Below, in pieces: positions 19,291 through 64,000 of a stretch of DNA of 64,000 nt. This DNA comes from Methanobacteriota archaeon (GTDB lineage Archaea; Thermoplasmatota; Poseidoniia; Poseidoniales; Poseidoniaceae): the NCBI GenBank assembly GCA_002689345.1, contig NZFU01000022.1:7687-71686 (forward strand), in the 5' to 3' direction. The notes under the pieces were generated by a model that was given only the letters and a program-made list of their open reading frames with translations, searched no databases and was not told the DNA's origin. The position numbers and the translations under genes are program-made. The stretch's first letter is position 1; each line of letters starts with the position of its first letter.

Positions 19291-19309
19291 GCCCGATGTA
19301 TCAACATCA

Positions 19310-20107: not shown

Positions 20108-20116
20108 AAAATCACC

Positions 20117-20902
20117 TCAAATAGAGCGCATTCTTCCGCCGTCAACTGCTAATGAAACTCCCCTTATTCTACTGGATATAGGCATGCAGAGATATGCTAT
20201 TGCTGCGCCGGTTTCGAGAGGGTCAATTAAGCGTCCAATTGGAACTTGTGACATCCATCCATGATGAATCTCATCAATACTCTTTCCTGTACGTTGATTG
20301 ATAGATTTCGCTAGTGAACCTAAACGGTCTGTATCTGTGAATCCTGGAAGAACATTGTTGATTGTGATACAAGGTGGTAATTCTCGGGACAAAGATTTCG
20401 CCCAAGATGCCATTGCACCTCTAAGAGTATTCGAAAGTCCGATATTTGGTATTGGTTCTCTTACCGATGTAGAAATTATATTCACAATGCGACCCATACC
20501 AGCAGCTTCCATCAGAGGAACCATTCCTTTGACCAAAGTATGAGCAGCATGCAAGTGACGTTTGAAGGGCGCTTCGAAATCTTCGATGGTATTGTCCAGT
20601 AGAGGACCCCCTGGAGGGCCTGCTGCATTATTGATTAGTATATGGCATTCTTCAATTGAAGAAATGAATTTGTCAATTGCTTCTTGATTCTCTAAATCAA
20701 GGCTTATTCCCGTATGTCCTTCACCTTCAAGCGTAGAAACAAAATCATGTGGATTTCTGCTTATTGCAGTTATCCTTGCACCCGCCTTCGCGAGCATTTG
20801 AGCAGTTGCTGCTCCAATTCCTTTAGATGCTCCACATACGATTGCATGCTTACCTGCTAATGCGGTATTTGAAAATGGATAGTCGTTTCCTAGCCAGTCC
20901 AT
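20117..20902 (-). CDS. Short-chain dehydrogenase/reductase (SDR)
   Basis: GKHAIVCGASKGIGAATAQMLAKAGARI (a TGxxxGxG-type Rossmann motif), NNAG, and a C-terminal ...VDGG. The track start at 20974 overlaps the upstream gene by 40 nt. ATG 20902 (MDWLGNDYPF) avoids this overlap. Confidence 0.8.
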   Translation of the reverse strand: MDWLGNDYPFSNTALAGKHAIVCGASKGIGAATAQMLAKAGARITAISRNPHDFVSTLEGEGHTGISLDLENQEAIDKFISSIEECHILINNAAGPPGGPLLDNTIEDFEAPFKRHLHAAHTLVKGMVPLMEAAGMGRIVNIISTSVREPIPNIGLSNTLRGAMASWAKSLSRELPPCITINNVLPGFTDTDRLGSLAKSINQRTGKSIDEIHHGWMSQVPIGRLIDPLETGAAIAYLCMPISSRIRGVSLAVDGGRMRSI

Positions 20903-29265: not shown

Positions 29266-32200
29266 ATGAAGACCGTACGTGCTACTGCTTTCTCTATTGT
29301 TGCCTTAATGCTAATTAGCATACTTGCATCATTTGGAGGACTTGTTGCTGAAAATGAAAATATTAACTCTCAACTTGCTGATGAACCAGTTGAAATGGAG
29401 GCTACAAGCCCTGGTCACCCTGTTTTCGCAGAATATATGGGCGCACATTGGTGTGGACCCTGTATTACAGCTACAAATAATTTGAAAAATTTGTACAGCA
29501 CTAATGGAGGAGGAGGAACTCAATCCGCAGATTTTACTTTCGTATCATTTTGGGAATCTCAAACATCTGGATGGCCAGCTGATTCCCCAATCAATCGCAG
29601 ATCCCACATCCAAAACGCTCCAGGATACACCGGCGGAATCCCAGTTACGGTCTTTGGCGATGCACCGTCCGGCACATACTACACGGTAGGTGGGCAATCG
29701 TACGACAGTTACTACCAAAATGGTGGAAACATGCATAACGCAAACGATTACGCATTATCTGTTACTCAATCCGAAAACGGGAATAACATGGATATCGAAA
29801 TCACTGCTGTATACAGTGGTTCTGGCTCAAAGAACGTATACCTCTACGCAGCAGTAACTGAAGAGAAAGGATACGAACCGTACACAGCAGGTAGTGGCTC
29901 AGACCACCCACCAAATTTGTGGAAAAAGTGGCTACTAAACAGCGGAAGCAACGGATTCGAGACATTCACATTAACATCAGGTACACCAGTGACCAAAACT
30001 TGGACAGTACCAACTTCAACCGCAAGAGCAGTAAGCGGAATAAGTTCAGCTGATAACTTCCTCACAGTTGCAGCATTATTGGATGGAGATCACTCCTCTC
30101 ATCGCAATGTAATCTCTGCAGCAGACTCTAACATGGCACCAACTATTGACGTGGGCGTTAAGACTTTCACAACAAATAATCCATCTGCACCTAATGGCGG
30201 TTACATTAACGGTGACTTCATTGATCTTGAAGCAACCATCGTCAACAATGGAGTGGACGCATATAGTGACGGTGGAAGTGTAAAATTCTTCTACAAGGCA
30301 AATAATCAGCCAGTTTATGTTGGCCAAACTCATTCCCTTGCAACCTTTGCAAATAATGGAGATACACAAATCTTCAATGGTCAAATCGACACAACAAATA
30401 TTCCGGAAAGTGCATACCAAACTACATTCGGAGTTGAGATTTCAAACCTAGTTGCAGATAAATCAAGTAACAACAATGATGCTACTGAAATTATTCCTCA
30501 TGACTTGGAACCTGTTGCACGTAAGGCTCAAGTGATTGGAAGTAACGAAATTGAAAGAGGAGACGACTTCCTGGTTGAAGCAAAAACTACTTTCAACGAT
30601 GGAGTAGACACTGACACCTCGTTCTTCACATTTGAGTTGAAAGTAAAATCTGCTGATGAGACCGATTGGGATTTGTACCCCGGTATAGTCACAGGAGGGG
30701 ATGAAATATTCCAAGCAGGAACTGCAAATGAACACTGTCAGTTCTTGGTTAGTCCAGATATGGCAATGGGAGCAGGATATTATGACATCCAAGTACGTTC
30801 TATCGATTCCCGCTCACAAGAGAGTAATTGGCAAATTACCGAAAATGCTTTCGAATTAAAGAATGCACTTCCTATAATTAATTCTGAACCAGTACACAGC
30901 GTCAAAGTTGAGTCCGGAGATCAAAGTTCTTTAACAGTTGATGCCCAAGACCAAAGGGTCGACATCTCTGCTAATGTAATGGATGCTGAAACTGATTTGA
31001 AGGACCTTGTAATAACCAGCGACAGCCCTAATTTCATTGGGTGGCATAGTGAAACTGGTGAAATAGAAGTATACTTTGATACCATTCGATTCGTCAATGG
31101 CCAACCTGCAGCAAGTGGCATTGAAATTTCAGTCTTTGACGGAATAGATACTGCATTCGGTACCCTTCTTTTCAACGTGGTTGAAAACGGTCAACCTCGT
31201 TGGGCTGGTGTCGAAAAGCAATATGTAGACGAGGGCACTACTGCTTCTCTATTCTTGCTACCGTATCTTTCAGATACTGACGAAAATGGAAATGTAGTTT
31301 CTGCTGAAAATTTAAACATTGCAATCGTTGACAACACCAATGAGGAATTGTTGAATCTTACATTGAATGGTTTTACTTTGAATTTCGCTACCGCTGATGA
31401 TGATATCACTGGAGAAACAACTCTTAAGATTCGTGCAAGCGATGGACAAAGTGAATCTGACCAACTGATTACGATTGCAATCAATCCAATCAACGATGCC
31501 CCTAGACTGAATCTGTCTGAACTTGAGGGACTACGACTAAAGGTGGGAACTCAAAAGGTAATATTCCTAAATGAAATCTTGAGTGATGTTGATGGTGATG
31601 TCGATGATGTATATGTTACAGCTAGTAACCCAACTCCTGGAGCTGCTCGCATCAACATATTAGATAATACTCTGACCTTGTTGTGGGAAAATGAAGGGAT
31701 GCAGACTGTTACAATTCAGGTTGAAGACCGTTACGATTCAAACATCTATGTATTAGTTGTAGATGTCTACGATAGTATGCCATTACTAGTGGGTGATGGA
31801 CCAGATGCTGATTTGCGTGTCTCTGTGTCCAATGTTTACATTGGCGAGGTCCCGGAAGTTACAATGTTCTTGAATATGGATGATGTCACTGTTACTGACT
31901 TGACAACCACATGGAGATTGTGTAACGCAGAATATTGTTCACTACAAGAAATTCACGAGCATGATATCACTTCCAAGAGTGTTGGTTGGACCTTTGACCC
32001 AGTCAAGGGCCAAATCGATGATTCCGGTATGGCGCCATTCCATTACATTGAACTTGCAAAGGTAACCGCCATTGCATCCAATGGTGATAAATTCGAATTC
32101 AAGGATTCAATGAAGTGGACTGCAGATGAAATGCCACCAGGCCCTGATACAATGACTGATGAAGAAGTCGTTGAATTAGTCGCTGAACTTGATGCTGCAA

Positions 32201-32682
32201 TTGCAAAATTGAATACTGAAATTGAAGGATTAACTGAAGGCACTCCAGAATATGAAGAGGCAAAGGTTGAGCTTAATGAGTTAGAACAAGAGCGCAAAGA
32301 TGCTTGTGAATACACCACATGTATAACACAAAATTCTGGTTCTGGAGAAGATGTTGAAGAATCAACACTAGATCTAACAGTAATTTTAGCCGTAATTGGA
32401 GTGGTTATCATTGCACTATTAGCTGGATTAATGTTCATGCGCGGAGGCAATGGAGAAACATCTGAAGTGATGGTCAACTGGGCTAATGAATTACCTTCTA
32501 ATGATGTAGTTGCAAACTCGATGTATGGAGGAGCACAAGAGATCTTCCAGCAACCTGTTGCAGTACCTGCTACAGTGGTTCAACAAGTTCCTCCAGGAGC
32601 ACCACCTCTGCCAGCTGGCGGTCTACCTGCAGGCTGGACTATGGAGCAGTGGGCATATTACGGGCACCAGTACCAACAGTAA
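29266..32682 (+). CDS. Large surface protein with an N-terminal thioredoxin-fold-like WCGPC domain, Ig/cadherin-like repeats, a coiled coil, a TM anchor, and a Pro-rich WW-like cytoplasmic tail
   Basis: The signal peptide is MKTVRATAFSIVALMLISILASFGG. HWCGPC lies at 29446-29463. PINDAPRLNL and acidic repeat domains are cadherin-like. The coiled coil is EEVVELVAELDAAIAKLNTEIEGL. The TM is VILAVIGVVIIALLAGLMF. The tail ends ...PPGAPPLPAGGLPAGWTMEQWAYYGHQYQQ. Confidence 0.85.
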   Translation: MKTVRATAFSIVALMLISILASFGGLVAENENINSQLADEPVEMEATSPGHPVFAEYMGAHWCGPCITATNNLKNLYSTNGGGGTQSADFTFVSFWESQTSGWPADSPINRRSHIQNAPGYTGGIPVTVFGDAPSGTYYTVGGQSYDSYYQNGGNMHNANDYALSVTQSENGNNMDIEITAVYSGSGSKNVYLYAAVTEEKGYEPYTAGSGSDHPPNLWKKWLLNSGSNGFETFTLTSGTPVTKTWTVPTSTARAVSGISSADNFLTVAALLDGDHSSHRNVISAADSNMAPTIDVGVKTFTTNNPSAPNGGYINGDFIDLEATIVNNGVDAYSDGGSVKFFYKANNQPVYVGQTHSLATFANNGDTQIFNGQIDTTNIPESAYQTTFGVEISNLVADKSSNNNDATEIIPHDLEPVARKAQVIGSNEIERGDDFLVEAKTTFNDGVDTDTSFFTFELKVKSADETDWDLYPGIVTGGDEIFQAGTANEHCQFLVSPDMAMGAGYYDIQVRSIDSRSQESNWQITENAFELKNALPIINSEPVHSVKVESGDQSSLTVDAQDQRVDISANVMDAETDLKDLVITSDSPNFIGWHSETGEIEVYFDTIRFVNGQPAASGIEISVFDGIDTAFGTLLFNVVENGQPRWAGVEKQYVDEGTTASLFLLPYLSDTDENGNVVSAENLNIAIVDNTNEELLNLTLNGFTLNFATADDDITGETTLKIRASDGQSESDQLITIAINPINDAPRLNLSELEGLRLKVGTQKVIFLNEILSDVDGDVDDVYVTASNPTPGAARINILDNTLTLLWENEGMQTVTIQVEDRYDSNIYVLVVDVYDSMPLLVGDGPDADLRVSVSNVYIGEVPEVTMFLNMDDVTVTDLTTTWRLCNAEYCSLQEIHEHDITSKSVGWTFDPVKGQIDDSGMAPFHYIELAKVTAIASNGDKFEFKDSMKWTADEMPPGPDTMTDEEVVELVAELDAAIAKLNTEIEGLTEGTPEYEEAKVELNELEQERKDACEYTTCITQNSGSGEDVEESTLDLTVILAVIGVVIIALLAGLMFMRGGNGETSEVMVNWANELPSNDVVANSMYGGAQEIFQQPVAVPATVVQQVPPGAPPLPAGGLPAGWTMEQWAYYGHQYQQ

Positions 32683-32704: not shown

Positions 32705-34810
32705 ATGGTCTATGGTGTATGCCAAACGGCTAAAACGGACTGTGTTGGAGGACTAATTGTGAGCGGAGAAGAAATTGTTGACACACCTGACTCTGAGCAG
32801 CAGGATTCGACTCCAGAGATGGAAGAAGAAATGGTCACGATTTGGAGCCCAGAAGCTGCAGATAATATTGAAATCAATTCAACACCAATTGATGAGTGGG
32901 TTCGGGGTGTTGATTTCAAATCTACAGAAGATGTACCTATCCCTGAAAGATTAGTCGACCAAGTTATTGGGCAAGATGCAGGTTCAATTGTTATTCGTAA
33001 AGCTGCAGAACAACGCAGACACATGATGATGATTGGAGACCCAGGTACTGGTAAATCCATGCTCGCAAGGTCGATGACTGAGCTATTACCTCAAGATAAA
33101 CTCGAAGATATCCTTTGTTATCCGAATGAAGATGATGAAAATGAACCACGTGTTCGCACCGTACCAGCTGGTCGTGGCGACCGTATTGTTAAGAGCCAAA
33201 AAGAAGCGATCAAGATTCAGCGAGAAAAGAGTCAGAAGATGCTAATGATTGGTTTTGTAGCTGTGGCATTCTTGTTAGCGGTAGTTGCTATTCAAAGTGG
33301 CGATATTCTAACTCTACTGTTTGGAATGCTACTGCTGATGTTTGGATATATGTTCTTGCGTTCACGTATGGGAGGAGCTGATGAAGCCCGTATTCCGAAA
33401 GTACTTGTGAAACATCAAGGACAAGACTCCCCACCGTTTGTAGATGCTACTGGAACACTTTCTGGTAGCCTATTAGGTGATGTAAGACATGACCCCTTCC
33501 AAAGTGGTGGCATGGAAACTCCCGCCCATGATAGAGTTGAGCCTGGTGCTATTCACCGAGCCCATGGAGGTGTATTGTACATTGACGAGATCAATCTCCT
33601 AAGACTAGAGGAACAACAAGCACTCCTAACTGCAATGCAGGAGAGAGCATTCCCTATATCTGGACGTTCTGAGCGTTCAAGTGGTGCTCTAACTAAGACC
33701 GAAGCAGTACCTTGTGATTTCATATTGATTGCTGCAGGCAATCTAGATGCAATTCAGGGAATGCACCCTGCACTAAGAAGTCGTATCCGCGGATATGGAT
33801 ACGAAGTATATGTTAATTCACATATGCCTGACACAACCGCAAACCGAAGACGTCTAATCAGATTCATAGCACAAGAAGTTCGTAGAGATTTAGGAACTTC
33901 GAGAGAGATTCCCCACTTCGATAGATCTGGAGTCTCAGTCATTCTAAGAGAAGCACAACGTCGTGCTGGCCGTCGAGGTAAATTGTCGCTTAGATTACGT
34001 GAACTTGGTGGATTGGTTCGAATCGCAGGAGATTTAGCGTGTGAAGAAGGTGCAGAGTTGACTACCTCTCGCCACGTACTAGCTGCCAGAAATATTGCTA
34101 AACCACTTGAGCAGCAAGTTGCTGATAGAATGATCGAGCGCCGACTTGAATACTCCCTAATAGTGAATTCAGGGAATAGAATAGGTCGTGTCAATGGCCT
34201 AGCAGTACTTGGAGCAGATTCAGGACTTTCAGATTACAGTGGTATTATGTTACCAGTAGAAGCCCTTGTAACTCCATCTCTAGCGAGTGGTGGAAGGGTG
34301 TATGCTACTGGTGGACTTTCTGATTTGGCTAAAGAGAGCGTTACCAATGTAAGTGCGGTAATTAAGAAGTTGACAGGAAAGGATGTTTCTGATTATGACA
34401 TACATATCCAATTCGTCGATACTCATGGAGTCGATGGGGACTCTGCATCGATTACAATTGCTACCGCGATTATCTCTGCTTTAGAAAACATCCCAATTCG
34501 CCAAGATTTGGCTATGACGGGAAGCCTATCGGTCAGAGGAGAAGTTCTACCAATTGGCGGGGTTACTGCAAAGATCGAATCTGCAGCTAAAGCAGGAATC
34601 AAGACTGTCGTCATTCCACGTGCAAATGCACAAGATGTATTACTAGACCATCAATTCGAAGGAATAGAGGTTATTGCTGTTGATACACTCGATGAAGTAA
34701 TGGAACATGCATTGCTAATAGGCGACAAGAAAACTAGTTTGGTTGAACGATTATCTGCTGTTATCGATAGATTGACCCCAGAGGTATCACCAAGTAGTCA
34801 ACTTTCTTGA
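32705..34810 (+). CDS. lonB: Archaeal membrane-bound Lon protease (LonB)
   Basis: Walker A is GDPGTGKSM. Two TM helices are inserted in the AAA+ module ([19 protein letters not shown]...[15 protein letters not shown]). The protease domain carries the catalytic Ser context [17 protein letters not shown] and [14 protein letters not shown] (Lys). Confidence 0.9.
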
Positions 34811-36686: not shown

Positions 36687-37667
36687 ATGGATTCAGCAGA
36701 AGTCATCTCCTGGACTCGGTTAATTGTGCTTTTTGGAGCCCTTGGAATAGCAGCATGGCTCGACCATAAAGAGAGGAGAGTCCCGAATGATTTTTGGATT
36801 ACTTGGTCTAAACCTGCAATATTTCTTTGGACTCTAGATCTGCTAGTTTCCCAGGCTCAGTGGTATGTTTATGCAACTGCTGCAGGTATGGTAGCTTATG
36901 CCTCAATAGCAGTCATCGGACGTCCTACAATTAAGGATATTAGTTCAGGAAAACGCTTAGATATTGCAGTTAGCATATGGTACCTCATTGGAATAATAGG
37001 TGTTATTCAGGGTCTTGTATTACACTCTAATGAAAATTTACTTTCGGTCATATCAGGTGAAGCCAGCGAAGACTCAATATTGTGGTGGTCAACATTTGCA
37101 GTATTTATTCCAATATTCCTAGTAGACATGGCTTGGAGAATGCGTTTGATACATGGTGGTGCTGATTGTAAAGGCTTGATGTGGATATCAATCCTAGTGC
37201 CATCCTGGTCGAGTATTCCAATCCTATTCCCTGATTCGATGGAGTCTGCAACAATAGCAATGCCTCCCGCAATTGCGCTCCTAGTATGGGGGGGTCTGGC
37301 ATTCTTGGTTTTACCATTAGTTATGGTTGTCAAGAACTTGATGAATGGAAATACAACTTTGAAATTGATTTGGCATGCCGAAAAAATGGACATCGATAAT
37401 GTACTCAAAAGCCATGTTTGGTTATTATCTACAATTGCTGAAATGCCAAGCGGTGAAAAGAAAATACTTCACCGAACTAGAGCACCGAGAAAAACCCCAA
37501 CCGTTGAACAATTGACTGCACAAATCGATGTATTGAAGGAAAATGGGGTTGAAGAAGTATGGGTGACAAGAAAATACCCGTTACTAGTATTCTTATGGCC
37601 AGCAATAATTCCACTATTCTTGATAGGTGGACCAATGGCATACATCATGCCACTAATTGGGCTATGA
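36687..37667 (+). CDS. flaK: A24-family aspartic membrane peptidase, FlaK/PibD-like preflagellin (prepilin) peptidase
   Basis: The first catalytic Asp lies in AAWLDHKERRVPND and the second in the GxGD-like IHGGADCKGLMWI. The C-terminal region EEVWVTRKYPLLVFLWPAIIPLFLIGGP parallels the Methanococcus FlaK tail (EEIWVTPQIPLIIP...) as I recall it. Confidence 0.75.
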   Translation: MDSAEVISWTRLIVLFGALGIAAWLDHKERRVPNDFWITWSKPAIFLWTLDLLVSQAQWYVYATAAGMVAYASIAVIGRPTIKDISSGKRLDIAVSIWYLIGIIGVIQGLVLHSNENLLSVISGEASEDSILWWSTFAVFIPIFLVDMAWRMRLIHGGADCKGLMWISILVPSWSSIPILFPDSMESATIAMPPAIALLVWGGLAFLVLPLVMVVKNLMNGNTTLKLIWHAEKMDIDNVLKSHVWLLSTIAEMPSGEKKILHRTRAPRKTPTVEQLTAQIDVLKENGVEEVWVTRKYPLLVFLWPAIIPLFLIGGPMAYIMPLIGL

Positions 37668-50064: not shown

Positions 50065-51453
50065 ATGGACGGAGCAGGTTGGTTAATAGGGATTGGTTTT
50101 GGATTAATTTTGATTCTATTTGTAATGGTGTTATTAGTTATAACAAGATACAAAAGATGTGCTTCTGACGAAATATTGGTCGTTTATGGACGCGTAAAAG
50201 GAGGTCGTGCATCACGTTGTATCCACGGTGGTGCAACAATGGTATGGCCTTTGATTCAGGATTACAAGAAACTGAGCCTGATTCCAATGACGATTAACAT
50301 CCCATTGACCAATGCTCTTTCGCAAGAGAACATCAGAATCAATGTTCCTTCAACTTTCACTGTTGGTATCAGTACTGACCCAACAATCATGAACAATGCT
50401 GCAGAACGTCTTCTGCACCTAACCCCTACCCAGATTGAAGCAATGGCTTCCGAGATTATCTTCGGTCAACTTCGTCTGACTGTTGCTTCCCTAACAATTA
50501 GGCAAATCAACTCCGACCGTGACCAATTCTTTGAGTCAATTCGTGACAACGTAGGTCATGAACTTAACAAGTTAGGATTGAACCTAATCAACGTTAACAT
50601 CACTGACATTACTGATGATTCTGACTTCATTGAGAGTATTGGACAGAAGGCTGCTGCAGGTGCAGTTAACGCTGCTAAGGCTGATGTTGCTGCTGCAAAC
50701 CGTGATGGTGACATCGGGCAAGCAGAAGCAAACCGAACTCGTGACATTCAGGTCGCTGAAAATCAGGCTGCTGCTGAAATTGGAAAGAAGGGTGCTAATG
50801 CTTCACAACGTAAGGAAGTTGCAGTACTCGAAGCGACTGCAATCGAAGGAGAGAATACATCCAGAGCAAGTATTGCTGAATACAACGCTACCCTTGCAGA
50901 AAAGGAAGCGGAAGCAATGCAGAGAGCGGAAGTTGCCAAGAGGGCTGCAGAGATGGAAGTTCAAAAGGCACAATATATGCTAGAGCAAGAGAGACTCAAG
51001 GCTGAAGAAATCGTTCGTGAAGAGATCGCAAAGACTCAGATCGAGATTGCTGCAGAGGCAGAAGCAGAACGCCAGCGCCGTGTCGCAGGTGGTGAAGCAG
51101 ATGCTATTCTTGCAAAGTACCGTGCTGAAGCAGAAGGTGTACAAGCTGTCCTAGAAGCAAAGGCTGCTGGTTATAGCAACCTAGTTGCAAGTGCAGGTGG
51201 CGATGCAAAGGCTGCTGCAACCTTGCTAATGGTTGAGAAGATAGAAAATATCGTAGCCCGCCAGGTAGAAGCAATCTCCAACTTGAAGATCGACAAGATT
51301 ACCGTTTGGGATTCAGCAGGTGGTGGCAATGGAGAAGGCTCCACTGCTAACTTCGTATCTAGCCTAATTCACTCACTACCGCCAGTCCACGATGTGGCTA
51401 AGATGGCAGGTGTAGACCTACCTGATTACTTGGGTAGTATGAAAGAGGATTGA
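50065..51453 (+). CDS. Flotillin-like SPFH/band-7 protein (YqiK/FloT-like)
   Basis: An N-terminal hairpin TM is followed by the SPFH domain (ILVVYGR...GGATMVWPLIQDYKKLSL...) and a long Ala/Glu-rich coiled coil (AEAEAERQRRVAGGEADAILAKYRAEAEG). Confidence 0.85.
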   Translation: MDGAGWLIGIGFGLILILFVMVLLVITRYKRCASDEILVVYGRVKGGRASRCIHGGATMVWPLIQDYKKLSLIPMTINIPLTNALSQENIRINVPSTFTVGISTDPTIMNNAAERLLHLTPTQIEAMASEIIFGQLRLTVASLTIRQINSDRDQFFESIRDNVGHELNKLGLNLINVNITDITDDSDFIESIGQKAAAGAVNAAKADVAAANRDGDIGQAEANRTRDIQVAENQAAAEIGKKGANASQRKEVAVLEATAIEGENTSRASIAEYNATLAEKEAEAMQRAEVAKRAAEMEVQKAQYMLEQERLKAEEIVREEIAKTQIEIAAEAEAERQRRVAGGEADAILAKYRAEAEGVQAVLEAKAAGYSNLVASAGGDAKAAATLLMVEKIENIVARQVEAISNLKIDKITVWDSAGGGNGEGSTANFVSSLIHSLPPVHDVAKMAGVDLPDYLGSMKED

Positions 51454-54552: not shown

Positions 54553-56079
54553 TCATGCGAATGGTATTGATACTGACTTGTGCGTACCAAGATTGACTAT
54601 AGTTAGCATACAAGGTTTAGGCTGAAACCCTAACATTCGCTGATATGAGGTTTGATCTTGCCATGTTGAAGAACAAACTAAGGTTGTACCTCGGAAATCG
54701 ATACATGCATGTCCATGAACGTGACCGGTCACAAAAATGTCTGGAACTTCTCGGATTACTAGGCCATCTTCTGGCTCAGGAGACAAAGGTGTCTTTCCTC
54801 CCCATTGTGGAGCGAGATGTCTGCGTCTAAGCATTTGACGCATTGCTTCTACAGGGTCGCGATAAGTTACGTTACGAAGTCCTGCAACGAAATCGTCAAT
54901 CGATTTACCATGATAGGAAAGTAGTCTTACTCCATCAAGACTGAAATCGCAAGGATTTCCAACGAAAGTTGTTGTATTGAAGTCCTGTTGAATATCCGGC
55001 TCAAGAGTAGGTTGAGGCTCAGCAGGTCTTACCGCATCGTGGTTACCTGGTAACATGATACATTCAACCCACTCAGGCAATAATTCTAGCAGTTCGGCGA
55101 ACCTTGAATACTGACCATACAAGTCTTTTATCGCTAATTCTTTATCTTGACCGGGATAAATTCCCACGCCATCTACACAATCACCTGACAAAACAAGATA
55201 CTTGATTGTACGAGCCAGAGGGTCGGTATTGAACCAATGTACCATCTTGTGCCACTGAGCTTCTAGGAATGTTTTACTTCCCACGTGTATATCAGACAGG
55301 AAGGCAACTGAAACACCTTGTTCTGCAAAGTTCTTATCGTGGCTATCTTGCATAGGGAAATGTAAATCATCGATGTAAAACATATCACCATTTTGTGAAA
55401 AGGTACCTGACACCCCAATTACATCATCAGGCATCAGTCCCGATTCAACTACTTGGGCGTGCTCAATTACTCGATCTTCACCTTTGCGATTCATCAATAA
55501 ACAATTCATTTCACCACTCGAATCTTCAAGAGCGAACATGAGATGACCATTTTTTGTGTGCCTCGGACCATTCACTAAACCGATGGCAACTGCAATGTTT
55601 TCTCGACCTTGAAAGCGACCTTTCTCGGCTTGCAATCGAGCGATTTCCATAGGCCTTCTAGGCAAATTGGAATTTGCGATAATCAATTTACGCAAACGCT
55701 CAAGGCGGTCATTGAATGCATTATTGATATCACCCATTTTCCCTTCAGTTGTACTATTTCCTGTAACGTCATAATGCACTTTTATGTCAATCATAGCATC
55801 GACAGCATCCATTGGAAAATCTTCACGATTCCAATCTGGCATATTGTTCCGCATCGAGATTTGCTCAGGTTGTGATTCAACTATTGGGGCAATAACTCTA
55901 CCAGGGTTATTGGAAGGTATCATATCTACCGACATCAAGCCCTTTACACCTTTAGAATGGAGTTCTGCAATTAGCCCCAAAGGGTCATGATATTGCTCCA
56001 AGCGTTCCTTAACACCACGGTTGACAATCAGTCCCGCACTCATAAGGTGCTGGAGAATCTCGCCCCAACCGGTTGCCAT
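54553..56079 (-). CDS. DNA polymerase II (PolD) small subunit DP1
   Basis: The calcineurin-like phosphoesterase motifs are VAFLSDIHVGS, LSGDCVDG, LPGNHD and TGHVHG. An OB-fold region and an N-terminal helical domain are also present. The ~508-aa length fits. Confidence 0.85.
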   Translation of the reverse strand: MATGWGEILQHLMSAGLIVNRGVKERLEQYHDPLGLIAELHSKGVKGLMSVDMIPSNNPGRVIAPIVESQPEQISMRNNMPDWNREDFPMDAVDAMIDIKVHYDVTGNSTTEGKMGDINNAFNDRLERLRKLIIANSNLPRRPMEIARLQAEKGRFQGRENIAVAIGLVNGPRHTKNGHLMFALEDSSGEMNCLLMNRKGEDRVIEHAQVVESGLMPDDVIGVSGTFSQNGDMFYIDDLHFPMQDSHDKNFAEQGVSVAFLSDIHVGSKTFLEAQWHKMVHWFNTDPLARTIKYLVLSGDCVDGVGIYPGQDKELAIKDLYGQYSRFAELLELLPEWVECIMLPGNHDAVRPAEPQPTLEPDIQQDFNTTTFVGNPCDFSLDGVRLLSYHGKSIDDFVAGLRNVTYRDPVEAMRQMLRRRHLAPQWGGKTPLSPEPEDGLVIREVPDIFVTGHVHGHACIDFRGTTLVCSSTWQDQTSYQRMLGFQPKPCMLTIVNLGTHKSVSIPFA

Positions 56080-57770: not shown

Positions 57771-57792
57771 CCCCAGGACCAAAGTCCTGGGG
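57771..57792. other. GC-rich perfect stem-loop (9 bp, loop CAAA)
   Basis: CCCCAGGAC-CAAA-GTCCTGGGG. Confidence 0.5.
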
Positions 57793-57815
57793 CCACACTC
57801 CTTTGTGGGGCTTCC

Positions 57816-57842
57816 CCCATCCCTAAGGATGGGTATTTTTTT
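57816..57842 (+). terminator. Stem-loop followed by a T-run (intrinsic-terminator-like on the + strand)
   Basis: CCCATCC-CTAA-GGATGGG is followed by TATTTTTTT. The T-run follows the hairpin only when read on the + strand, although the flanking protein genes are on the - strand. Confidence 0.4.
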
Positions 57843-57862
57843 GCGTACAATTAGAGGCAACC

Positions 57863-57886
57863 CATCCTCCCTCGAAAGGGAGGATG
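57863..57886. other. GC-rich stem-loop (9-10 bp), 15 nt downstream of the giant gene's stop
   Basis: CATCCTCCC(T)-CGAA-(A)GGGAGGATG. Its 5' arm shares CCCATCC with the neighbouring hairpin. Confidence 0.5.
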
Positions 57887-57901: not shown

Positions 57902-58420
57902 TCAACCAAGGTTGTTCCAAGTTCTTAGAACAGATGCCTGACTGGTTGGAGGCACATAGCTAACTGACAAGAATACATCCTCAATCAGGTTGCCATCTGC
58001 ATCAACAGACTTGACATATATGGTGTCGCCAGTGTCGAAACTTGACTTCACTGCACCGCCTTCACTACCAACTGCGTCGGTAAAGGTCACCATACTATCT
58101 GAGTTACCAGGGTAGAATCCATACACTGTAGGATCTGCCAAATTGTAAGACTCAGATACTGAGACACCATTCGATGTGTAGCTCAGTGATACCTGTATTG
58201 CTTGAGTTGCCAATTCTACTTGGCTACCTGTAACAACAATACGATGGAAATCACCGTTCGATTCAACATCGAAACTCATACGAGGAACTCCCTTTGCAGA
58301 TGTGTCTGCAAGGCTAGATGCCCAGACGTATATTACACCAGATAGAACCACTGTGATTGCAACCATTAGGATGGTAGCAATAACTGGGCTCACCGCTTGC
58401 TCGTCGTCTTCAAGAATCAT
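57902..58420 (-). other. Archaeal type IV pilin-like module (Pilin_N/DUF1628-like). It is either the C-terminal domain of the giant protein or a nested gene starting at ATG 58420
   Basis: The 172 aa read MILEDDEQ-AVSPVIATILMVAITVVLSGVIYVWASSL, followed by a ~135-aa beta-rich domain. The hydrophobic core is near-identical to the conserved (A/G)VSPVIGVILMVAITV motif of archaeal pilin-like proteins as I recall it. There is no stop codon between it and the upstream adhesin. Confidence 0.65.
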
Positions 58421-61400
58421 CTCTTCAAGAGATGCTTCTTCTTCATCACGGCGGCTCTGTAGAACCAGAGCGCTGACGAATAGACCAGCAGCGCTGATTG
58501 CAATGATTGAAGGTGCGAATGATGGTACATCCGCAGTTCCAATCAAGCGTACAACTGTTGGTAGATCCTGTCCAGTAGCTTCAGTAGTCTTACCGAAGGT
58601 ACGTGGTTGTGCACAATCTGAACCATTGTCATCAGTGCTCATTAGGTTGTTACACCAATCTTGGTCTTCTAGCATTGGTCGGCGTTGGCTTTCAAGCATA
58701 CCAGATGGGTTTCCATCTTCATCTACACTAGACATTCCAACTTCACCAGGACAACTCCAAGCTTCTCCTTGAATACCGTTACTATCGACACATGCGTGTG
58801 CCATAGGGAACTTGTACTCGAAGAAACGATCTGCAGGAGATGCTGCAAGGTTACATTCTTCATCAACACATGTTAGAACATCGACCTCGACCCAGATTCT
58901 GGAACTTGTTGAAGTTATGAAGACATAGTCTGAAACTTCAAGTGTATCTCCATATGCAGGTGGCTCGACATACTGTGTACCAAGGGAAACATACTCCTCG
59001 CCGTTAGGGTCGTCGTTGTTGTATCCATTGCTGTGGAAGGTTACTTCCAGCATGTGGTCGTAGTTGTATGGTCCTTCATCTCCACCATGACCGATTGTGA
59101 CAGTAGTTGGCACGAAGGTCTTAGGCATGATGTTCGAAACTTCATTGTAGTCAAATCCGAGTACGCCATCTAGGAAGTAATCAGGTACATTCTCTGCGAC
59201 GTTGTCAACACGTATGTACAATGTTTCAGTAGCTTCTCCTTGCATGTAATTACCAGTGTTAGCACCATTCAAACCGTAATCATTGATGTAATTAGGTATG
59301 TAAGATGGGTAATCTGCTGAGTCGTGTAGGTACAAGTTGATCGGACAGAATTCTCCAGAACTTGGGTTCTGCTGATGAATTCCCTGGTTGTTCAGGTAGT
59401 CGATTTCCCATTCAGGTGCGTTAGTTGTAGCATCCTTGATTAGATCGAATACAATCTCGTCACCAATGATTGTTGCAGAGAAGTAGTCTTCATAGTCACA
59501 ATCAGTTGCCTTGACGATAGACCATACTAGGTCTGCATCTTCATGATCATTGTCATGCTTCATAGCAGCAAGGTCGTAAGTCAAGTTGTCAACGTTCTCG
59601 TCATCTTCAGTTAGAGTGACCTTCCATGGGAAGTTTGGAACTTCTCCATTTCCGTCAGAGATTACTATTCCATCTTCACGGTCCCAATCTAGAATTTGTG
59701 GAGCGTCGTTCACAGGAGTAACTGCGAAGTCAACTTCGTAGCTAATCGCATCTGTGTTCTCTCCAACCCATCCATATGCTAGACAGATTGTGTCGCTCAT
59801 TCCAGTTGGTGTGCCATCAGGGTAGTACTGAGGTACGAAGGATGCAAGTCCTAGGTATAGGTTGTAACATCCTGTAACAGTAATTGGACCATATACTGGG
59901 TGATCGACTGGGTAGTCAACCAACCAAGTGTATGATACACAACTTGCTCTGACATCTGTGGTACGACCTAGGTAGGTGTTTGCACAGTATCCACCATCAT
60001 CGTTCAGAGTTAGTACGATTGTACACTCGCCACCAAGTTCGTTAGCAGCGTTCTCTGTAATGGTCAACTCGTTGTTGGTAACTGTAACTGAGTATGCTGG
60101 ACATGGGTCATATCCACCGGTTGTGGTGTATCCGTTAGGGAATACGCCATCCCAAGTGGTAGTGAATGAATCAACATCCACGCCATATGCTTCCAACCAG
60201 AAGTCAGTGTAGTTCAATCCGTTGTATACCTTAGCGTTAGCATCGATTGTACTGTCACAGCCATCATCTGAGCGAACTGCGGTAACCTTGTCACCGTTAG
60301 AGTCCATGTATTCCTGGTACCATACAGATCCACAGCCGTTCTGGGCTAGTAGGTATGTTAGCAGAGTTACATCGTTCAGAGTTGGTAGTGTGTAGGTACC
60401 GTTTGGCGAGATACTAGATGGGTCACCAGACATTGCTATGTCTTGGAATCCACCGTTAGCAGTAACTGCATCTCCAGCTTCAGCGAATAATGCTGCAACA
60501 CTGGAGTACTTCTTCTGGACCCAGTATGGATCGACTGTTACATCGTCACCCTTGATCGAAGCTCCCCATGTGTATAGCTGAGGTTGCTCGTTTGCCATGT
60601 CGTTGCTTGCCATGTCTATAACATAGGAGCCGGTTGCGTTAGCAGCAGATCCTAGGACCTTGCTGACACTTCCAAATCCTTCGTCAAGGACGTTCAGGTT
60701 ACCTGCACCGTCATCAGAGAAGACTGGCATACAGTCTGCACGTGCTGAGTTACAGATAATCGGTGCATCGTTAACATTCACTACTGTGAAGGTAATTGTT
60801 GCACTGTCTGTCAATCCATGACTGTCTTCAACACCGAAGTGGAAGACATAGGAACCGAACTGGTCGTTGTCAGGAGTGATGGTCATTGTCTGAGTAGATA
60901 GACTGCTATCTAGAAGCATTGTTGGGCTTCTAGTAGGGTCTAGGTCATCAGCAACGGTCCAAGACAGAGTGCTTTCTGCATCCTGTACATCGTCAGCCTT
61001 GTCGGTCAAGGTTAGTGTGTAAGCACCACTGTCTTCGTTGACTGTTACATCAACCAAGTTCTGGATAACTGGACACGCACGCTTGATATCGATGGATTCA
61101 GCAACGTTTGTGCTCATGTCGACCGAAGTTATTGTTCCCCAATCTTCAGCGCATTCTGCATCAACCTTGACTGAAATGTCGTAGGTCTTTGCATCGCTTG
61201 GACTGTTGGAACCAACATAGCTACGGTAAATTAGCAAGTGGTTGCGTAGTTCATCTCCAGCAGCAAGATCACTGTGACCCATGAGGAGTGTTAACTCGTC
61301 AGTGAAAGTCTGTGCGTTTGCTCCTGCAACAAATGCTTGCTCTGGGTGAACAGATGCGATTGCGCCTGTTGATTCATCCTGAACAATTACAATCATTCTA

Positions 61401-64000
61401 ACTGTGCTCGCTGGCTCACCGATACAACTCCAAGGAATTGCGATCTCTGTGTCTGTGTCACCAGAGTGTCCGATGTAGGAAGATAATCCTCCACAAGACG
61501 ATGTGACGTCAGACCAGCCTGTGAAGCCGTTGACCTTCAGACCGGAGTTACCAGAGTTACCATCTTCTGCCCAGAAGACATAGTCCGCTGCGAATGGCAG
61601 AGAGTGTGCGACATACCAGCTTTCACCGGTTGTGTCTCCACCTGTGCTCGAATCGATGTAAATCTGCAAGTCTGCAGATCCCATATCGACACCAGTCAAT
61701 GACATGTACAAGTTGTTAGCATCCCATGTAGTAAGGAAATCCTCGGATAGACCATTGCTGGACATTACACCAGGCATTGCATCATCAGATGGGTTCTTGT
61801 CGTTACCATACCACTCTTCCATGTCGCCATCAGCGTTCATGTAAGGTGCACGGTATGCAGGTGAAACATATGCTGCTTGAGCACCGTCAGTGGACTGAAT
61901 TAGTAGTCCAATGTCAGATGCTGAGCCACCCTTGTGGGTGACATCAAGGTCTAGCAAGTTTCCTTCATGGATAACAGCGGTTGCATCTACTACTAACTTA
62001 GCAGCAGTTACTGTGTTACCAACTGAAGTTACTGTGACATAGGAACCTGCGTCGATTTGGGTTGTTGAGTCTGCCCATGTGACATTCTCAACGGATCCTT
62101 CTGCACCACCGTCTGCCATTAGAGCAGTTGTAGCATCAGAGTCTCCACCATTCCAGCGGAAGTTCACAGCGTCAGAGTTCAATCCATACATACCAGAGGT
62201 ATCCATGTCAGTAGCATCGAATGAGGATGTACCGGTTATGTACATTGCAGATCCAGAGCTGTCAGCGATTAGTTGTGCACCATCGACTACAACATCTGTA
62301 TCTTCAGCGTAAGCACCGTAGTCGCCACCAGATAGTAGCGCATCTCCACTCAGAGTCATTGAACCACCGAACTGCTCGATTGCAGTTCCGAATCCTGATA
62401 CAGATGTTCCATCTAGAGTGATTTCATCATTTGTACCAACTACGTTAACACCAACGGATGTGAATCCGCTGCTGCTACCGGTTGAAACTACAATTGAACC
62501 ATACATCCACGAGTGGACACTACAATGGTAATCGTAAGTGCCTGCTGTGGTGAATGTCTTGGTGTAAGTAGATCCAAGGTTCATTGTTCCGCCAGATCCC
62601 CATGTGGAATCGTTAGCGGTTACATCGTGAGCTTCACCAGTACCACTGTTGTTGTAGTATTCGTTTGCTCTCCAGCGAATAGTGTCGCCTTCGTTGATGC
62701 TTACAGATACAGGTGAGTATGCGTTAGCATTAATCTGTACTGTGTACACTGAACCGCCGCTTCCACCAACTGCTGCCAGAGTAGAACCAGAGTCTACAAG
62801 GTCACAGCCATCGGTTACGATTGCGTTCTCCATTACACTAACTGTGTTACCACCAGTGTTAACCACTGAGGAACCACAATCTTCAGCCCAAATTCCGATT
62901 GCTGCTGGAGCACTGCGGCCTGGGGACTGAGAGATGTCGTTGTTGGTCACGTTAGCGTTGAATCCGTACTTGACACCGTCAATCAGAATTCCACCATCTG
63001 CATCGACTAGTGTGTTACCGTCGATTACACCGTGTCCATCCTTGACATAGATACCAGCCTTTGATGCATCAGATGCACCGTTGATGGTGTTATCTATAAT
63101 GTTCCAATCAAGTGCGCCACGCATGTAGATCGCTTCCTGAGAATTGGAGAAGGTATTTCCTTCAATCAATAAATCAGTCGTTGTTCTGTCTTGTGTGTAC
63201 ACACCATACAATGGTGAGGATGAACCACTGAACTCGTTGTTAGTGATTTCTACACCGTCGCTGTATGAATTGAGCGAGAACCAAATATCAATAGTCTCAG
63301 AGTTGATGAATTCGTTATTTTCAATAATTGCATCATCAGCACCCCAGAAGGACTGGGTGTAAGCGTACGAGAATCCGGTTCGTGTTAGGTAAACACCAAC
63401 ACCACAGTTTGTCATGACGTTGTTTGCGATGGTGGTGTTATTTCCACCAGCGTTCAAACACATATCCTGATATGCTACAGATCCTGTTACAGGCATAGTT
63501 CTGAAGTGAGTCATTGTGTTGTTTTGGATGTTGAAGAAATCAGCTTCCCAAACATATGCACTCCAAGTAGACTTGTATCCGAATGTGGTAACAATTGATG
63601 CTAATCCGGTAATAGTTGAATCCTGAATATCAGGGACAACATCGTTCCATCCATTGTAACCAATCTTGATTCCTTGTGCATCACCATCATCGATTGCTGT
63701 TGAGACCCAATTTGTGTTGTGGGCATACAAGCGAGCACCGTATGGGTATGTAGACCAGACGTTCATTGAATCATAGTAAATATATGATCCAGTAGACAAG
63801 ATCGTACTTCCATTTAGAGAAACATCAGTGTTTCCATCTATGTACCAGTATCCTACGTCAAGCATTACAACCTTGTTTTTCATGTCGGTTGGTGTAGCAC
63901 CATAGTATCCATACTCCTTCAAACCGGAAGTGTAAGTTCTACCGGTTGAACTGGAAGTACTTAGACCAGGACAGTTCTGTACGTATACGAATGAACTGCT
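57902..64000 (-). CDS. Giant surface protein, 5'-partial (frame open to the window's right edge). It contains a right-handed beta-helix (PbH1/NosD-like) region, a cupredoxin domain, cadherin-like and other beta domains, a TM anchor, an acidic linker and a C-terminal archaeal pilin-like module
   Basis: The track start at 63922 is a TTG, and the frame continues without a stop to nt 64000 (SSSFVYVQNCPGLSTSSSTGRTYTSGL precedes it). Beta-helix repeats include NNTIANNVMTNCGVGVYL, IENNEFINS, ITNNEFSGS and IEGNTFSNS. The cupredoxin ligand pattern is H...C-S-V-H-S-W-M. VNVNDAPIICN and TPVNDAPQILDW are present. The TM is PSFAPSIIAISAAGLFVSALVLQ. Confidence 0.85.
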   Translation of the reverse strand, partial: SSSFVYVQNCPGLSTSSSTGRTYTSGLKEYGYYGATPTDMKNKVVMLDVGYWYIDGNTDVSLNGSTILSTGSYIYYDSMNVWSTYPYGARLYAHNTNWVSTAIDDGDAQGIKIGYNGWNDVVPDIQDSTITGLASIVTTFGYKSTWSAYVWEADFFNIQNNTMTHFRTMPVTGSVAYQDMCLNAGGNNTTIANNVMTNCGVGVYLTRTGFSYAYTQSFWGADDAIIENNEFINSETIDIWFSLNSYSDGVEITNNEFSGSSSPLYGVYTQDRTTTDLLIEGNTFSNSQEAIYMRGALDWNIIDNTINGASDASKAGIYVKDGHGVIDGNTLVDADGGILIDGVKYGFNANVTNNDISQSPGRSAPAAIGIWAEDCGSSVVNTGGNTVSVMENAIVTDGCDLVDSGSTLAAVGGSGGSVYTVQINANAYSPVSVSINEGDTIRWRANEYYNNSGTGEAHDVTANDSTWGSGGTMNLGSTYTKTFTTAGTYDYHCSVHSWMYGSIVVSTGSSSGFTSVGVNVVGTNDEITLDGTSVSGFGTAIEQFGGSMTLSGDALLSGGDYGAYAEDTDVVVDGAQLIADSSGSAMYITGTSSFDATDMDTSGMYGLNSDAVNFRWNGGDSDATTALMADGGAEGSVENVTWADSTTQIDAGSYVTVTSVGNTVTAAKLVVDATAVIHEGNLLDLDVTHKGGSASDIGLLIQSTDGAQAAYVSPAYRAPYMNADGDMEEWYGNDKNPSDDAMPGVMSSNGLSEDFLTTWDANNLYMSLTGVDMGSADLQIYIDSSTGGDTTGESWYVAHSLPFAADYVFWAEDGNSGNSGLKVNGFTGWSDVTSSCGGLSSYIGHSGDTDTEIAIPWSCIGEPASTVRMIVIVQDESTGAIASVHPEQAFVAGANAQTFTDELTLLMGHSDLAAGDELRNHLLIYRSYVGSNSPSDAKTYDISVKVDAECAEDWGTITSVDMSTNVAESIDIKRACPVIQNLVDVTVNEDSGAYTLTLTDKADDVQDAESTLSWTVADDLDPTRSPTMLLDSSLSTQTMTITPDNDQFGSYVFHFGVEDSHGLTDSATITFTVVNVNDAPIICNSARADCMPVFSDDGAGNLNVLDEGFGSVSKVLGSAANATGSYVIDMASNDMANEQPQLYTWGASIKGDDVTVDPYWVQKKYSSVAALFAEAGDAVTANGGFQDIAMSGDPSSISPNGTYTLPTLNDVTLLTYLLAQNGCGSVWYQEYMDSNGDKVTAVRSDDGCDSTIDANAKVYNGLNYTDFWLEAYGVDVDSFTTTWDGVFPNGYTTTGGYDPCPAYSVTVTNNELTITENAANELGGECTIVLTLNDDGGYCANTYLGRTTDVRASCVSYTWLVDYPVDHPVYGPITVTGCYNLYLGLASFVPQYYPDGTPTGMSDTICLAYGWVGENTDAISYEVDFAVTPVNDAPQILDWDREDGIVISDGNGEVPNFPWKVTLTEDDENVDNLTYDLAAMKHDNDHEDADLVWSIVKATDCDYEDYFSATIIGDEIVFDLIKDATTNAPEWEIDYLNNQGIHQQNPSSGEFCPINLYLHDSADYPSYIPNYINDYGLNGANTGNYMQGEATETLYIRVDNVAENVPDYFLDGVLGFDYNEVSNIMPKTFVPTTVTIGHGGDEGPYNYDHMLEVTFHSNGYNNDDPNGEEYVSLGTQYVEPPAYGDTLEVSDYVFITSTSSRIWVEVDVLTCVDEECNLAASPADRFFEYKFPMAHACVDSNGIQGEAWSCPGEVGMSSVDEDGNPSGMLESQRRPMLEDQDWCNNLMSTDDNGSDCAQPRTFGKTTEATGQDLPTVVRLIGTADVPSFAPSIIAISAAGLFVSALVLQSRRDEEEASLEEMILEDDEQAVSPVIATILMVAITVVLSGVIYVWASSLADTSAKGVPRMSFDVESNGDFHRIVVTGSQVELATQAIQVSLSYTSNGVSVSESYNLADPTVYGFYPGNSDSMVTFTDAVGSEGGAVKSSFDTGDTIYVKSVDADGNLIEDVFLSVSYVPPTSQASVLRTWNNLG
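62486..62749 (-). other. Cupredoxin (type 1 blue copper, amicyanin/plastocyanin-like) domain within the giant protein
   Basis: VYTVQINANAYSPVSVSINEGDTIRWRAN...GEAHDVTA...YTKTFTTAGTYDYHCSVHSWMYGSIVV. The His...Cys-x2-His-x2-Met ligand spacing is as in amicyanin-type sites. Confidence 0.7.

Follow-up and report, generated by a model that had tools for sequence, protein, structure and literature searches.

A type IV pilin module behind the membrane anchor of giant surface proteins in Poseidoniales archaea

By definition, a class III (prepilin) signal peptide stands at the N-terminus. In archaeal pilins of the Pilin_N/DUF1628 type (e.g., PilA1-6 of Haloferax volcanii), the signal lies at the extreme N-terminus of a protein of about 150 amino acids (aa), and an Ala at position -1 (context DA↓VS or RA↓VS, with the arrow marking the cut) precedes the helix VSPVI...ILMVAITV and a beta-sandwich head (PMC4371748). 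The cut is made on the cytoplasmic side of the membrane, ahead of the hydrophobic domain (PMC4371748), and archaeal pilin genes are commonly remote from the assembly machinery (PMC12448462). The latter is also true of CdiPB, the major type IV pilin of Cuniculiplasma divulgatum (8REY), whose stand-alone 135-aa precursor loses an 11-residue leader and whose filament has been seen by cryo-electron microscopy (PMC12448462). Here we describe a pilin of this kind that forms the last part of a giant adhesin. The gene lies at the edge of a 64,000-nucleotide (nt) stretch, called the window below, of contig NZFU01000022.1 (assembly GCA_002689345.1, positions 7,687 to 71,686) from a Methanobacteriota archaeon of the Poseidoniaceae, in the same phylum (Thermoplasmatota) as Cuniculiplasma. 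The pilin helix of the fusion is nearly the same as that of the PilA-type pilins, the Ala at -1 is kept, a beta-sandwich head follows and the gene lies away from assembly machinery; unlike in those pilins, the “leader” is a secreted ectodomain of >4,000 aa together with a transmembrane (TM) helix and a linker, and the residue at -2 is usually uncharged.

The TM helix ahead of the pilin has its own described counterpart in the PGF-CTERM/archaeosortase A sorting signals, in which a motif abuts a TM helix with conserved internal residues and an Arg cluster at the end of large surface proteins. The fusion shares this layout, and one related locus adjoins an archaeosortase-family gene; however, its motif is PSFAPS rather than PGF, it has no above-threshold profile match, about 190 residues follow it, and no archaeosortase was found in the Poseidoniales loci searched. 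Pilins joined to an adhesive or other functional module in one polypeptide are also known, as in PilB of Streptococcus sanguinis (PMC8179133), and two proteins of the clade studied here, P0158 and P0249, are built in the same way. In these modular pilins the pilin comes first, where an ordinary class III signal at the N-terminus works, and the added module sits C-terminal to it, whereas in our protein the order is reversed (adhesin first, pilin last), which requires a membrane hairpin. ArlF and ArlG (FlaF/FlaG), the archaellum stator proteins, likewise have an N-terminal pilin-like helix and a beta-sandwich, and the pilin module resembles them in weak fold matches and in the name “FlaG/FlaF family flagellin” that JGI assigns automatically to family members; yet they are small stand-alone proteins encoded in the archaellum operon, while the module has a Pilin_N match and the residues of the cleavage site are kept in it. 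Each ingredient is known, whether DUF1628-type pilin, class III signal, tripartite sorting signal or giant adhesin, and it is their arrangement that is new: because the class III site is internal and the sorting-like element is not C-terminal, one defining feature of each known kind fails. An earlier note on this DNA, made from the letters alone, knew of no description of either arrangement that it proposed. In the literature we likewise found no account of a class III signal placed internally or C-terminally, nor of an adhesin with a pilin fused behind it, and two surveys of archaeal type IV systems are silent on such an arrangement (PMC4858521; bioRxiv 10.64898/2026.04.22.720090).

The last ~215 residues of the adhesin are a conserved composite cassette made of a sorting-signal-like element, a cytoplasmic linker and a complete archaeal type IV pilin. 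Its parts are as follows.

57902 to 64000, minus strand: 3' part of the giant surface-protein gene (6.1 kb, 2,032 codons), with the frame open at the window edge.
58508 to 58528, minus strand: signature motif V-P-S-F-A-P-S abutting the first TM helix (TM1), resembling the motif part of a tripartite PGF-CTERM-type sorting signal.
58525 to 58457, minus strand: TM1 segment PSFAPSIIAISAAGLFVSALVLQ, also given with its context as GTADVPSFAPSIIAISAAGLFVSALVLQ.
58457 to 58507, minus strand: hydrophobic core of TM1, IIAISAAGLFVSALVLQ, helix 50-77 of the AlphaFold2 model at low confidence; orientation probably outside to inside.
58456 to 58397, minus strand: cytoplasmic linker of 20 residues, SRRDEEEASLEEMILEDDEQ, opening with an Arg pair and ending like a leader, with a hydrophobic residue at -7, Asp or Glu at -5, Asp at -4, Asp or Glu at -3 and any residue at -2.
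58319 to 58396, minus strand: hydrophobic helix of the class III signal type, AVSPVIATILMVAITVVLSGVIYVWA, covered by Pilin_N and TIGR02537.
Between the Ala codon 58396-58394 and the Val codon 58393-58391, minus strand: prepilin-peptidase cut predicted by analogy with DUF1628 pilins.
57905 to 58291, minus strand, then the stop at 57902-57904: pilin head, a beta-sandwich of about 129 aa in AlphaFold2 and Foldseek.

The earlier note had read this region as one uninterrupted frame running through an ectodomain, TM1, an acidic linker, a pilin helix and a beta-rich tail, and we confirmed each of these segments. The minus-strand frame is stop-free from 57902-57904 up to the window edge at 64000, and since it is still open there, the window carries just the last 2,032 codons of the adhesin gene; the TTG at 63922 is merely the first start codon in the window, and the true N-terminus lies beyond it. 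Pfam profiles match Big_9, cadherin-like and cupredoxin domains in the ectodomain. The pilin segment, which begins at 58396 and reads AVSPVIATILMVAITVVLSGVIYVW, accounts for the 164 aa after the linker. Its class III site lies about 1,860 residues into the in-window open reading frame (ORF) and ~4,190-5,370 residues into full-length orthologues, so that it lacks the N-terminal position in the precursor that marks class III substrates.

Profile searches and structure prediction, both proposed in the earlier note, bear out its view that the last 172 aa resemble a full archaeal pilin/DUF1628 precursor. These residues match Pfam Pilin_N (PF07790) with 38.8 bits (cut-off 25.2) and TIGR02537 arch_flag_Nterm with 45.5 bits (cut-off 20). 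An AlphaFold2 model that includes the cassette, built on a 51-sequence alignment, contains a long helix (residues 90-116) followed by a beta-sandwich (126-247), with block predicted local distance difference test (pLDDT) values of 83-95; this is the helix plus beta-rich head typical of filament subunits. The top Foldseek matches in the PDB are 5Z1L, 8REY, 8RH5 and 9EQ7, comprising archaellins and the Cuniculiplasma type IV pilin CdiPB, which is the second-best match (E 1.9e-4, 20% identity). The soluble domains of FlaF (4P94) and FlaG (5TUH) are also matched. NCBI, too, assigns an automatic name to a 4,578-aa orthologue, and automatic names of this sort on orthologues indicate that annotation pipelines detect the domain.

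We then asked how widely the fusion is kept. A search with the last 250 aa gave 858 relatives, of which 113 protein sequences were tabulated; scanning one genome per GTDB species gave 544 relatives, and the counts out of 80 used throughout refer to the best 80 loci, whose labels are nearly all Poseidoniales, Poseidoniaceae or related archaea. An in-frame fusion is kept in 80/80 of these species-level loci, with no stop between anchor and pilin, and the frame usually remains open for >3,380 residues upstream, to the edge of the retrieved flank; upstream stops in three loci (L024, L083 and L090) are frameshifts or ambiguous bases. Among the 113 tabulated sequences, all that reach more than about 25 aa upstream of AVSPVI show TM1 and the linker. 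Because the 10-kb locus flanks end inside the gene, N-termini were taken from full-length representatives, obtained by a profile search over 1.84 billion representative proteins. These orthologues are 4,372-5,559 aa long, open with a Sec-type signal peptide and carry the cassette at their very C-terminus. The adhesin-pilin fusion is therefore real and ancient. The earlier note had offered, as one of its readings, a genuine fusion with the N-terminus outside, TM1, a cytoplasmic loop, a second TM helix and the C-terminus outside, and as an architecture this reading is supported by the orthologues' signal peptides and by the Arg pair that follows TM1 in 78-80 of the 80 loci. One locus among the relatives (L050, NZEQ01000026.1) was deposited as “Verrucomicrobiales bacterium” and bears the Poseidoniales cassette; it is probably mis-binned.

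Across the 80 species, 24 of the 26 residues of the pilin helix are invariant and the other two scarcely vary, and lineages that share this helix have heads <50% identical. Synonymous sites vary, with a mean third-position codon identity of 0.52 in the helix; together with the invariant residues, this points to purifying selection at the protein level and not to recent homogenisation of the DNA. We considered recent gene conversion as the cause of the invariant helix and rejected it on the same third-position identity and because the helices of fusions and of stand-alone pilins differ systematically (SGVI versus AGVL).

TM1 is conserved in a manner that does not fit a generic anchor. In the motif ahead of it, V, S and F and the second P are kept in 80 of 80 species, the first P in 73, A in 78 and the final S in 74; within the helix, a mid-helix Gly is found in all 80, a Phe in 73, and a Val and a Leu in 79 each; the two Arg residues after it are present in 78/80 and 80/80. 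V[PA]SFAPS, a helix of ~17 residues and RR thus reproduce the tripartite layout of motif, TM helix and Arg cluster, and judged from sequence TM1 resembles an archaeosortase sorting signal. Conserved residues within the helix have been argued by Haft to indicate an intramembrane processing enzyme (10.1101/2023.06.07.544157). At E<=10, the TM1 of the window has no match among curated sorting-signal hidden Markov models (HMMs), PGF-CTERM included, and related sequences elsewhere give sub-threshold scores only: P0137 reaches 14.8 bits against Heimdall-CTERM (cut-off 24) and a paralogue at locus L215 reaches 13.5 bits against PGF_CTERM (cut-off 24.5). In the fusion this element is not C-terminal, as the 20-residue linker and the 164-aa pilin module follow it; it would become C-terminal only upon cleavage at A↓V.

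Next to the predicted cut, the fusion linker retains the context of a genuine prepilin leader. The G, A or S found at -1 of class III substrates is Ala in 80/80 fusions; position -3 is Asp or Glu in 78/80, position -4 is Asp in 75/80 and position -7 is Met, Leu, Ile or Phe in 80/80. The Arg pair lies 17-21 residues ahead of the Ala. For comparison we used 92 representative genuine leaders of stand-alone pilins from the same clade, in which -1 is Ala, Gly or Ser in 92/92, -3 is Asp or Glu in 83/92 and -2 is uncharged in 21/92 (including Q, S, T, A and M). The best-conserved determinants are the Ala at -1 and the acidic residue at -3, and the fusion retains both. Stand-alone pilins of this clade, with a near-identical helix (AGVL for SGVI), are common in marine metagenomes: we retrieved at least 120 loci with a DNA pattern specific to the leader M[KNQR]NENRNEE, which directly precedes AVSPVI. 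Where the 5' region was inspected, these genes have ~350 nt of non-coding leader and a GGAGG site, and their neighbours encode a GT2 protein, MetAP, Sua5, an RDD-family protein and a helicase.

The cassette is not confined to this adhesin family. In the 187 sequences gathered by the searches that followed the first protein search, internal sites of the [AGS]-V-S-P-V-I type number 45, and 44 of them have a P[SG]F-type motif and a TM helix ahead; the lone exception is a mis-called start. The complete series (motif, TM helix, basic cluster, linker, [DE][AG]↓VSPVI and pilin) ends at least three further, unrelated families of large proteins.

P0241 (2,360 aa), P0255 (2,382 aa), P0207 and others: Gly-rich family with the cassette at the end.
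P0225 (1,167 aa): cassette at the end.
P0137 (2,785 aa): beta-helix protein with a “choice-of-anchor Q” domain (98 bits) and a TPGFVPS motif, cassette at the end.

Linkers in these sister families are basic or mixed, with a charged residue (D or E) at -2 in all. In P0241 and P0255 a signal anchor stands at the N-terminus and the linker is basic, e.g., SRRKKKGRGKDDD directly followed by AVSPVI. The most informative case is the P0225 locus (L215 7539-15936, also L216), which encodes, in order, the fusion, a canonical pilin, a distant paralogue and a convergent archaeosortase-family gene. The canonical pilin, which opens with MKRFMSREKR ahead of AVSPVIATILLVSITVV and its AVSPVI site, starts 13 nt after the fusion gene. 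The paralogue is a 1,127-aa secreted protein that ends in VPGFAPSITLVVTCLLAVALVGSRRRRSGQ, i.e., in VPGFAPS, a TM helix and a terminal RRRRSGQ, and the exosortase/archaeosortase-family protein beside it (284 aa) matches TIGR04178 with 38.8 bits (cut-off 23). At this locus the motif, TM helix and Arg cluster are a true C-terminal signal lying beside what is likely its enzyme, in a paralogue of a protein that runs on into a linker and a pilin. A membrane protein of the HGSNAT/acyltransferase family adjoins the L215 locus, and another lies near the fusion gene in L214; in L214 the P0241 gene is followed (17365-20127) by a tandem paralogue that is truncated where the contig ends and whose N-terminal signal-anchor region closely resembles that of P0241.

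Relatives that lack the hairpin clarify how the pilin head may sit relative to the adhesin. The ectodomain next to the membrane in our protein is a domain in its own right.

58778 to 59164, minus strand: membrane-proximal beta-rich ectodomain of 129 aa with five beta-strands (block pLDDT about 60-79).

In P0139 (707 aa), P0144 and P0146, this domain is followed after ~20 residues by a homologue of the pilin head, with no TM1, linker or pilin helix between them; Asp-rich repeats of the DxDxDG type and an ordinary TM anchor come after the head. P0139 is 40% identical to the adhesin over the 129 aa of the membrane-proximal domain and 44% over 133 aa of the head (E 1e-28). These paralogues support a topology in which both domains would be outside and adjacent, and their layout hints that the pilin head contacts the adhesin. 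An AlphaFold2 model of the last 420 aa, made to see whether the head docks on the membrane-proximal domain, was too low in confidence (pLDDT 66.7; predicted template-modelling score 0.53) to be informative. Three matches to the P0241 cassette (P0312, P0314 and P0331) carry the head of that second family behind lipoprotein-like or Sec-type signal peptides without a pilin helix, from which it appears that heads move among pilin, cassette and ordinary secreted contexts.

What the sequences show is a conserved architecture that recurs in other protein families and ends in a predicted pilin fold; from this we infer a topology, a cleavage, entry into a filament and perhaps a second processing step. 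The N-terminal signal peptide would export the adhesin ectodomain via Sec, and TM1 would act as a stop-transfer sequence, leaving the Arg pair and the linker in the cytoplasm. The pilin helix would then re-insert with its N-terminus in and its C-terminus out, so placing the head outside, beside the membrane-proximal domain. On the sequence features above, we lean towards the reading that the bond following the invariant Ala is cut on the cytoplasmic side by an A24 prepilin peptidase, which would free a mature pilin and leave the adhesin with a C-terminal sorting signal. The pilin could join a filament built of stand-alone pilins, as its first 26 residues are almost identical to theirs and the mature forms should be able to enter the same filament. 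The adhesin would end in the motif, TM1, RR and a short acidic tail, with DEEEASLEEMILEDDEQA as its new C-terminal peptide, and this tripartite signal would be open to further processing. A conceptual parallel, in an unrelated enzyme, compartment and group of organisms, is mitochondrial MPP, an N-terminal-signal peptidase that matures the composite precursor Arg5,6 at an internal signal-like site (PMC8734313). The enzyme itself may be encoded in the window.

36687 to 37667, plus strand: candidate A24 (FlaK/PibD-type) prepilin peptidase, about 20 kb away and on the opposite strand.

The earlier note had named this ORF as a FlaK/PibD-type peptidase, and the assignment holds up in so far as it scores 32.7 bits against Arc_PepC_II (cut-off 29.9) and its GGAD aligns to the GxGD catalytic motif (GGGD) of FlaK (3S0X); its match to FlaK_Arch (29.5 bits) is far under the equivalog cut-off of 330.

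Several observations weigh against cleavage and filament entry. The scores that identify the candidate peptidase are weak. No gene for a pilus ATPase or platform protein was found near the fusion, in the window or in the flanks of orthologous loci, and no pilus machinery lies beside the stand-alone pilin genes in the neighbourhoods examined; nor was pilus machinery or an archaeosortase found in L217 (upstream of an orthologue), L214 or L218. The stand-alone pilins that would supply the filament were counted in metagenome loci. The hairpin-less paralogues use the head as a plain ectodomain domain, so that polymerisation is not a necessary property of the head. The linker carries a net acidic charge, and its only basic residues lie 17-21 positions upstream of the cut. 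Finally, the residue at -2 is uncharged in 78/80 fusions (Gln in the window) versus 21/92 stand-alone leaders, and a charged -2 is reported to be important for archaeal prepilin peptidases (PMC4371748). The FlaFind rule that -2 is charged (PMC4371748) does not hold for the window fusion and is loose in this pilin clade. The earlier note had placed the Gln at -2 of a cut at EQ↓AV and had warned that processing could not be assumed. Gln is indeed at -2; the scissile bond, however, is A↓VSPVI rather than Q↓AV by analogy with DUF1628 pilins, and Glu is then -3. As the linker ends in the context of native leaders (acidic, acidic, any residue, Ala), the caveat is weakened, though not removed: 21/92 native leaders are themselves uncharged at -2, yet the shift in 78/80 fusions is systematic and could mean slower processing or none. 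As regards machinery, an archaellum-type operon that lacks chemotaxis genes is reported from every genus of the Poseidoniaceae, for which Rinke et al. propose an adhesive role (PMC6461757; see also PMC6336850).

These points bring up the main rival, namely that the cassette is an uncleaved two-helix hairpin anchor whose head is static, binding the envelope as ArlF/ArlG do or stabilising the adhesin, with neither a peptidase nor a filament involved. The uncharged -2, the acidic linker and the want of nearby assembly genes all suit it, as do the Foldseek matches to FlaF and FlaG, which are pilin-like but static, the JGI name, and the occurrence of the same head inside the ordinary ectodomains of P0139, P0144 and P0146. 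We nevertheless find it doubtful, as it leaves the invariant helix residues, the Ala at -1 and the Asp or Glu at -3 unexplained next to divergent heads and synonymous sites. The same residues are conserved in genuine N-terminal prepilins, the sister-family linkers are textbook basic leaders with a charged -2, and the other adhesins of the window manage with unconserved single TM anchors. A reading that extends peptidase cleavage instead of denying it is sequential double processing, in which the prepilin peptidase acts first and an archaeosortase-family enzyme then cuts at PSFAPS, freeing the adhesin or anchoring it to lipid so that it is docked on the pilin head and carried on the filament. 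All three parts of a sorting signal in TM1, its near-invariant motif and its conserved helix residues speak for this, and so does the paralogue at L215/L216 that ends in such a signal right beside an archaeosortase-family gene. P0137 has its “choice-of-anchor Q” domain, which we take, from the naming convention, to mark proteins with varied C-terminal sorting signals, and the ~20-residue spacing of head and membrane-proximal domain in the hairpin-less paralogues fits docking. Against it, a homologue search with the L215 enzyme returned only the query itself, phmmer with that enzyme found no archaeosortase homologue in the window or in ~2.1 Mb of retrieved loci apart from the L215/L216 copies, and NCBIfam scans of ten further window ORFs gave no archaeosortase either. 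Sorting-signal HMMs do not match TM1 in Poseidoniales and elsewhere do so below threshold only, the PSFAPS-type motif is single rather than multiple in the sequence examined, and the 420-aa model that might have shown docking is of low confidence. Double processing is thus a tentative possibility, and we rate as slightly less probable the full proposal that the cassette is a composite sorting domain read by two membrane proteases in turn; the adhesin would then leave its helix, remain docked on the pilin head made from the same gene and so be loaded onto a type IV filament. The earlier note's further suggestion, that the pilin helix plugs into a fibre without being cut and so holds the adhesin there, is improbable on structural grounds because the N-terminus of a pilin is buried in the filament core.

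Whether the two parts belong to one translated protein at all is a separate question, which the species comparison answers. The earlier note had pointed to an internal ATG at 58420-58418, which is present 8 codons ahead of the Ala codon, and had proposed a nested or independently translated pilin, in which case the read-through fusion would be incidental. Some ATG occurs within 12 codons of the site in 62/80 loci, and gene callers frequently start there. However, -7 is Met in only 27/80, the 12 upstream codons hold no ATG in 18/80 and no canonical start of any kind in 12/80, and a Shine-Dalgarno-like core is found in only 23/80, versus the ~350 nt leader and GGAGG of true stand-alone genes. 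No stop separates the parts, and synonymous sites vary freely, with no sign of overlapping constraint or of a promoter or ribosome-binding site conserved inside the gene; we regard a nested gene as very improbable. Even less credible, to the point of being nearly negligible, is an assembly or sequencing artefact that joined two adjacent genes, since the same in-frame junction is found in 80 independent species-level assemblies and many metagenomes. What speaks for such an artefact is that pilins of 174-183 aa stand as separate proteins in some database entries and that chimeric contigs across the shared helix probably exist. Three of these calls were examined as candidate separate genes and rejected: P0014 owes its start to a scaffold gap at FAPS (L001), P0090 to ambiguous bases upstream of a continuous frame (L002) and P0109 to long-read frameshifts (L003). 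All apparent stand-alone calls of this module that we examined can be traced to sequence gaps, ambiguous bases or frameshifts, to starts called inside the gene, or to contigs that are likely chimeric. Three hybrids with a stand-alone leader and a fusion-type head (P0016, P0017 and P0071) were considered as recombinants and set aside as probable chimeras. In P0016 (L213) and P0017 (L212), the promoter and 5' region of a stand-alone locus are joined to the HAD-gene region found 3' of the fusion gene, and P0071 (L011) has a stand-alone 5' region and a fusion-type head, ending just past the stop. Coverage is ~1.5x in two of these contigs, and one of the three has adapter-like sequence at its end; all were probably joined during assembly across the helix-coding repeat common to both gene types, which puts false “stand-alone” versions into protein databases.

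If cleavage of the internal site by a prepilin peptidase is borne out, a conserved internal class III signal would widen the substrate range of these peptidases and the routes by which pilins are supplied. Marine Group II archaea are uncultured and dominate the archaeal plankton of the surface ocean, and attachment to particles is considered a key part of their ecology. The cassette would tie two of their surface features, giant adhesins and type IV filament machinery, together in a way that experiments can address. Should both processing steps occur, dominant planktonic archaea and at least three other protein families would possess an inherent means of arming pili, one to one, with giant adhesins. 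The apparent joining of a pilin to an archaeosortase-type signal suggests a new composite sorting domain, which could be catalogued in many genomes and help to predict which surface proteins are coupled to filaments.

The remaining large surface proteins of the window provide a contrast within the same genome. The earlier note had stated that all of them stop soon after the TM anchor and tail; each does end in a C-terminal TM helix and a charged tail, and no pilin motif is found elsewhere in the window, these proteins included, but the tails vary in length, up to about 100 aa. Trp/Tyr-rich repeats recur at the ends of the cytoplasmic tails of the proteins encoded at 56-7543, 7576-10194 and 29266-32682 and of P0139 (e.g., the terminal sequences DGTWYYWDNDTSGWEEWAD, GKTGWYIDSSGELTSWLVSDSGEWTRMS and EGTHWYLANNGEHWYSTDDGYRVFEES) and may represent a docking motif in the cytoplasm that these tails have in common. 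The protein at 24472-28383 differs in that its tail ends in a CxxC...CxxC zinc-ribbon-like motif. Within the ectodomain of the adhesin itself, the cupredoxin/plastocyanin-like domain at ~62486-62743 (ORF aa 394-479; Pfam Copper-bind, 28.3 bits versus a cut-off of 21.2) is unusual in an adhesin. Directly 3' of the adhesin-pilin stop lie GC-rich inverted repeats (57863-57872 with 57877-57886, 10 nt and perfect; 57826-57834 with 57860-57868) and a palindrome, GGCCCCAGGAC...GTCCTGGGGCC, at about 57776-57800, all of which look terminator-like. Housekeeping neighbours in the window encode LonB (32705-34810), flotillin (50065-51453) and the small subunit of DNA polymerase II (54553-56079). The order HAD, CinA and polymerase subunit 3' of the adhesin gene is kept in close relatives, and distant orthologues retain HAD and then diverge.

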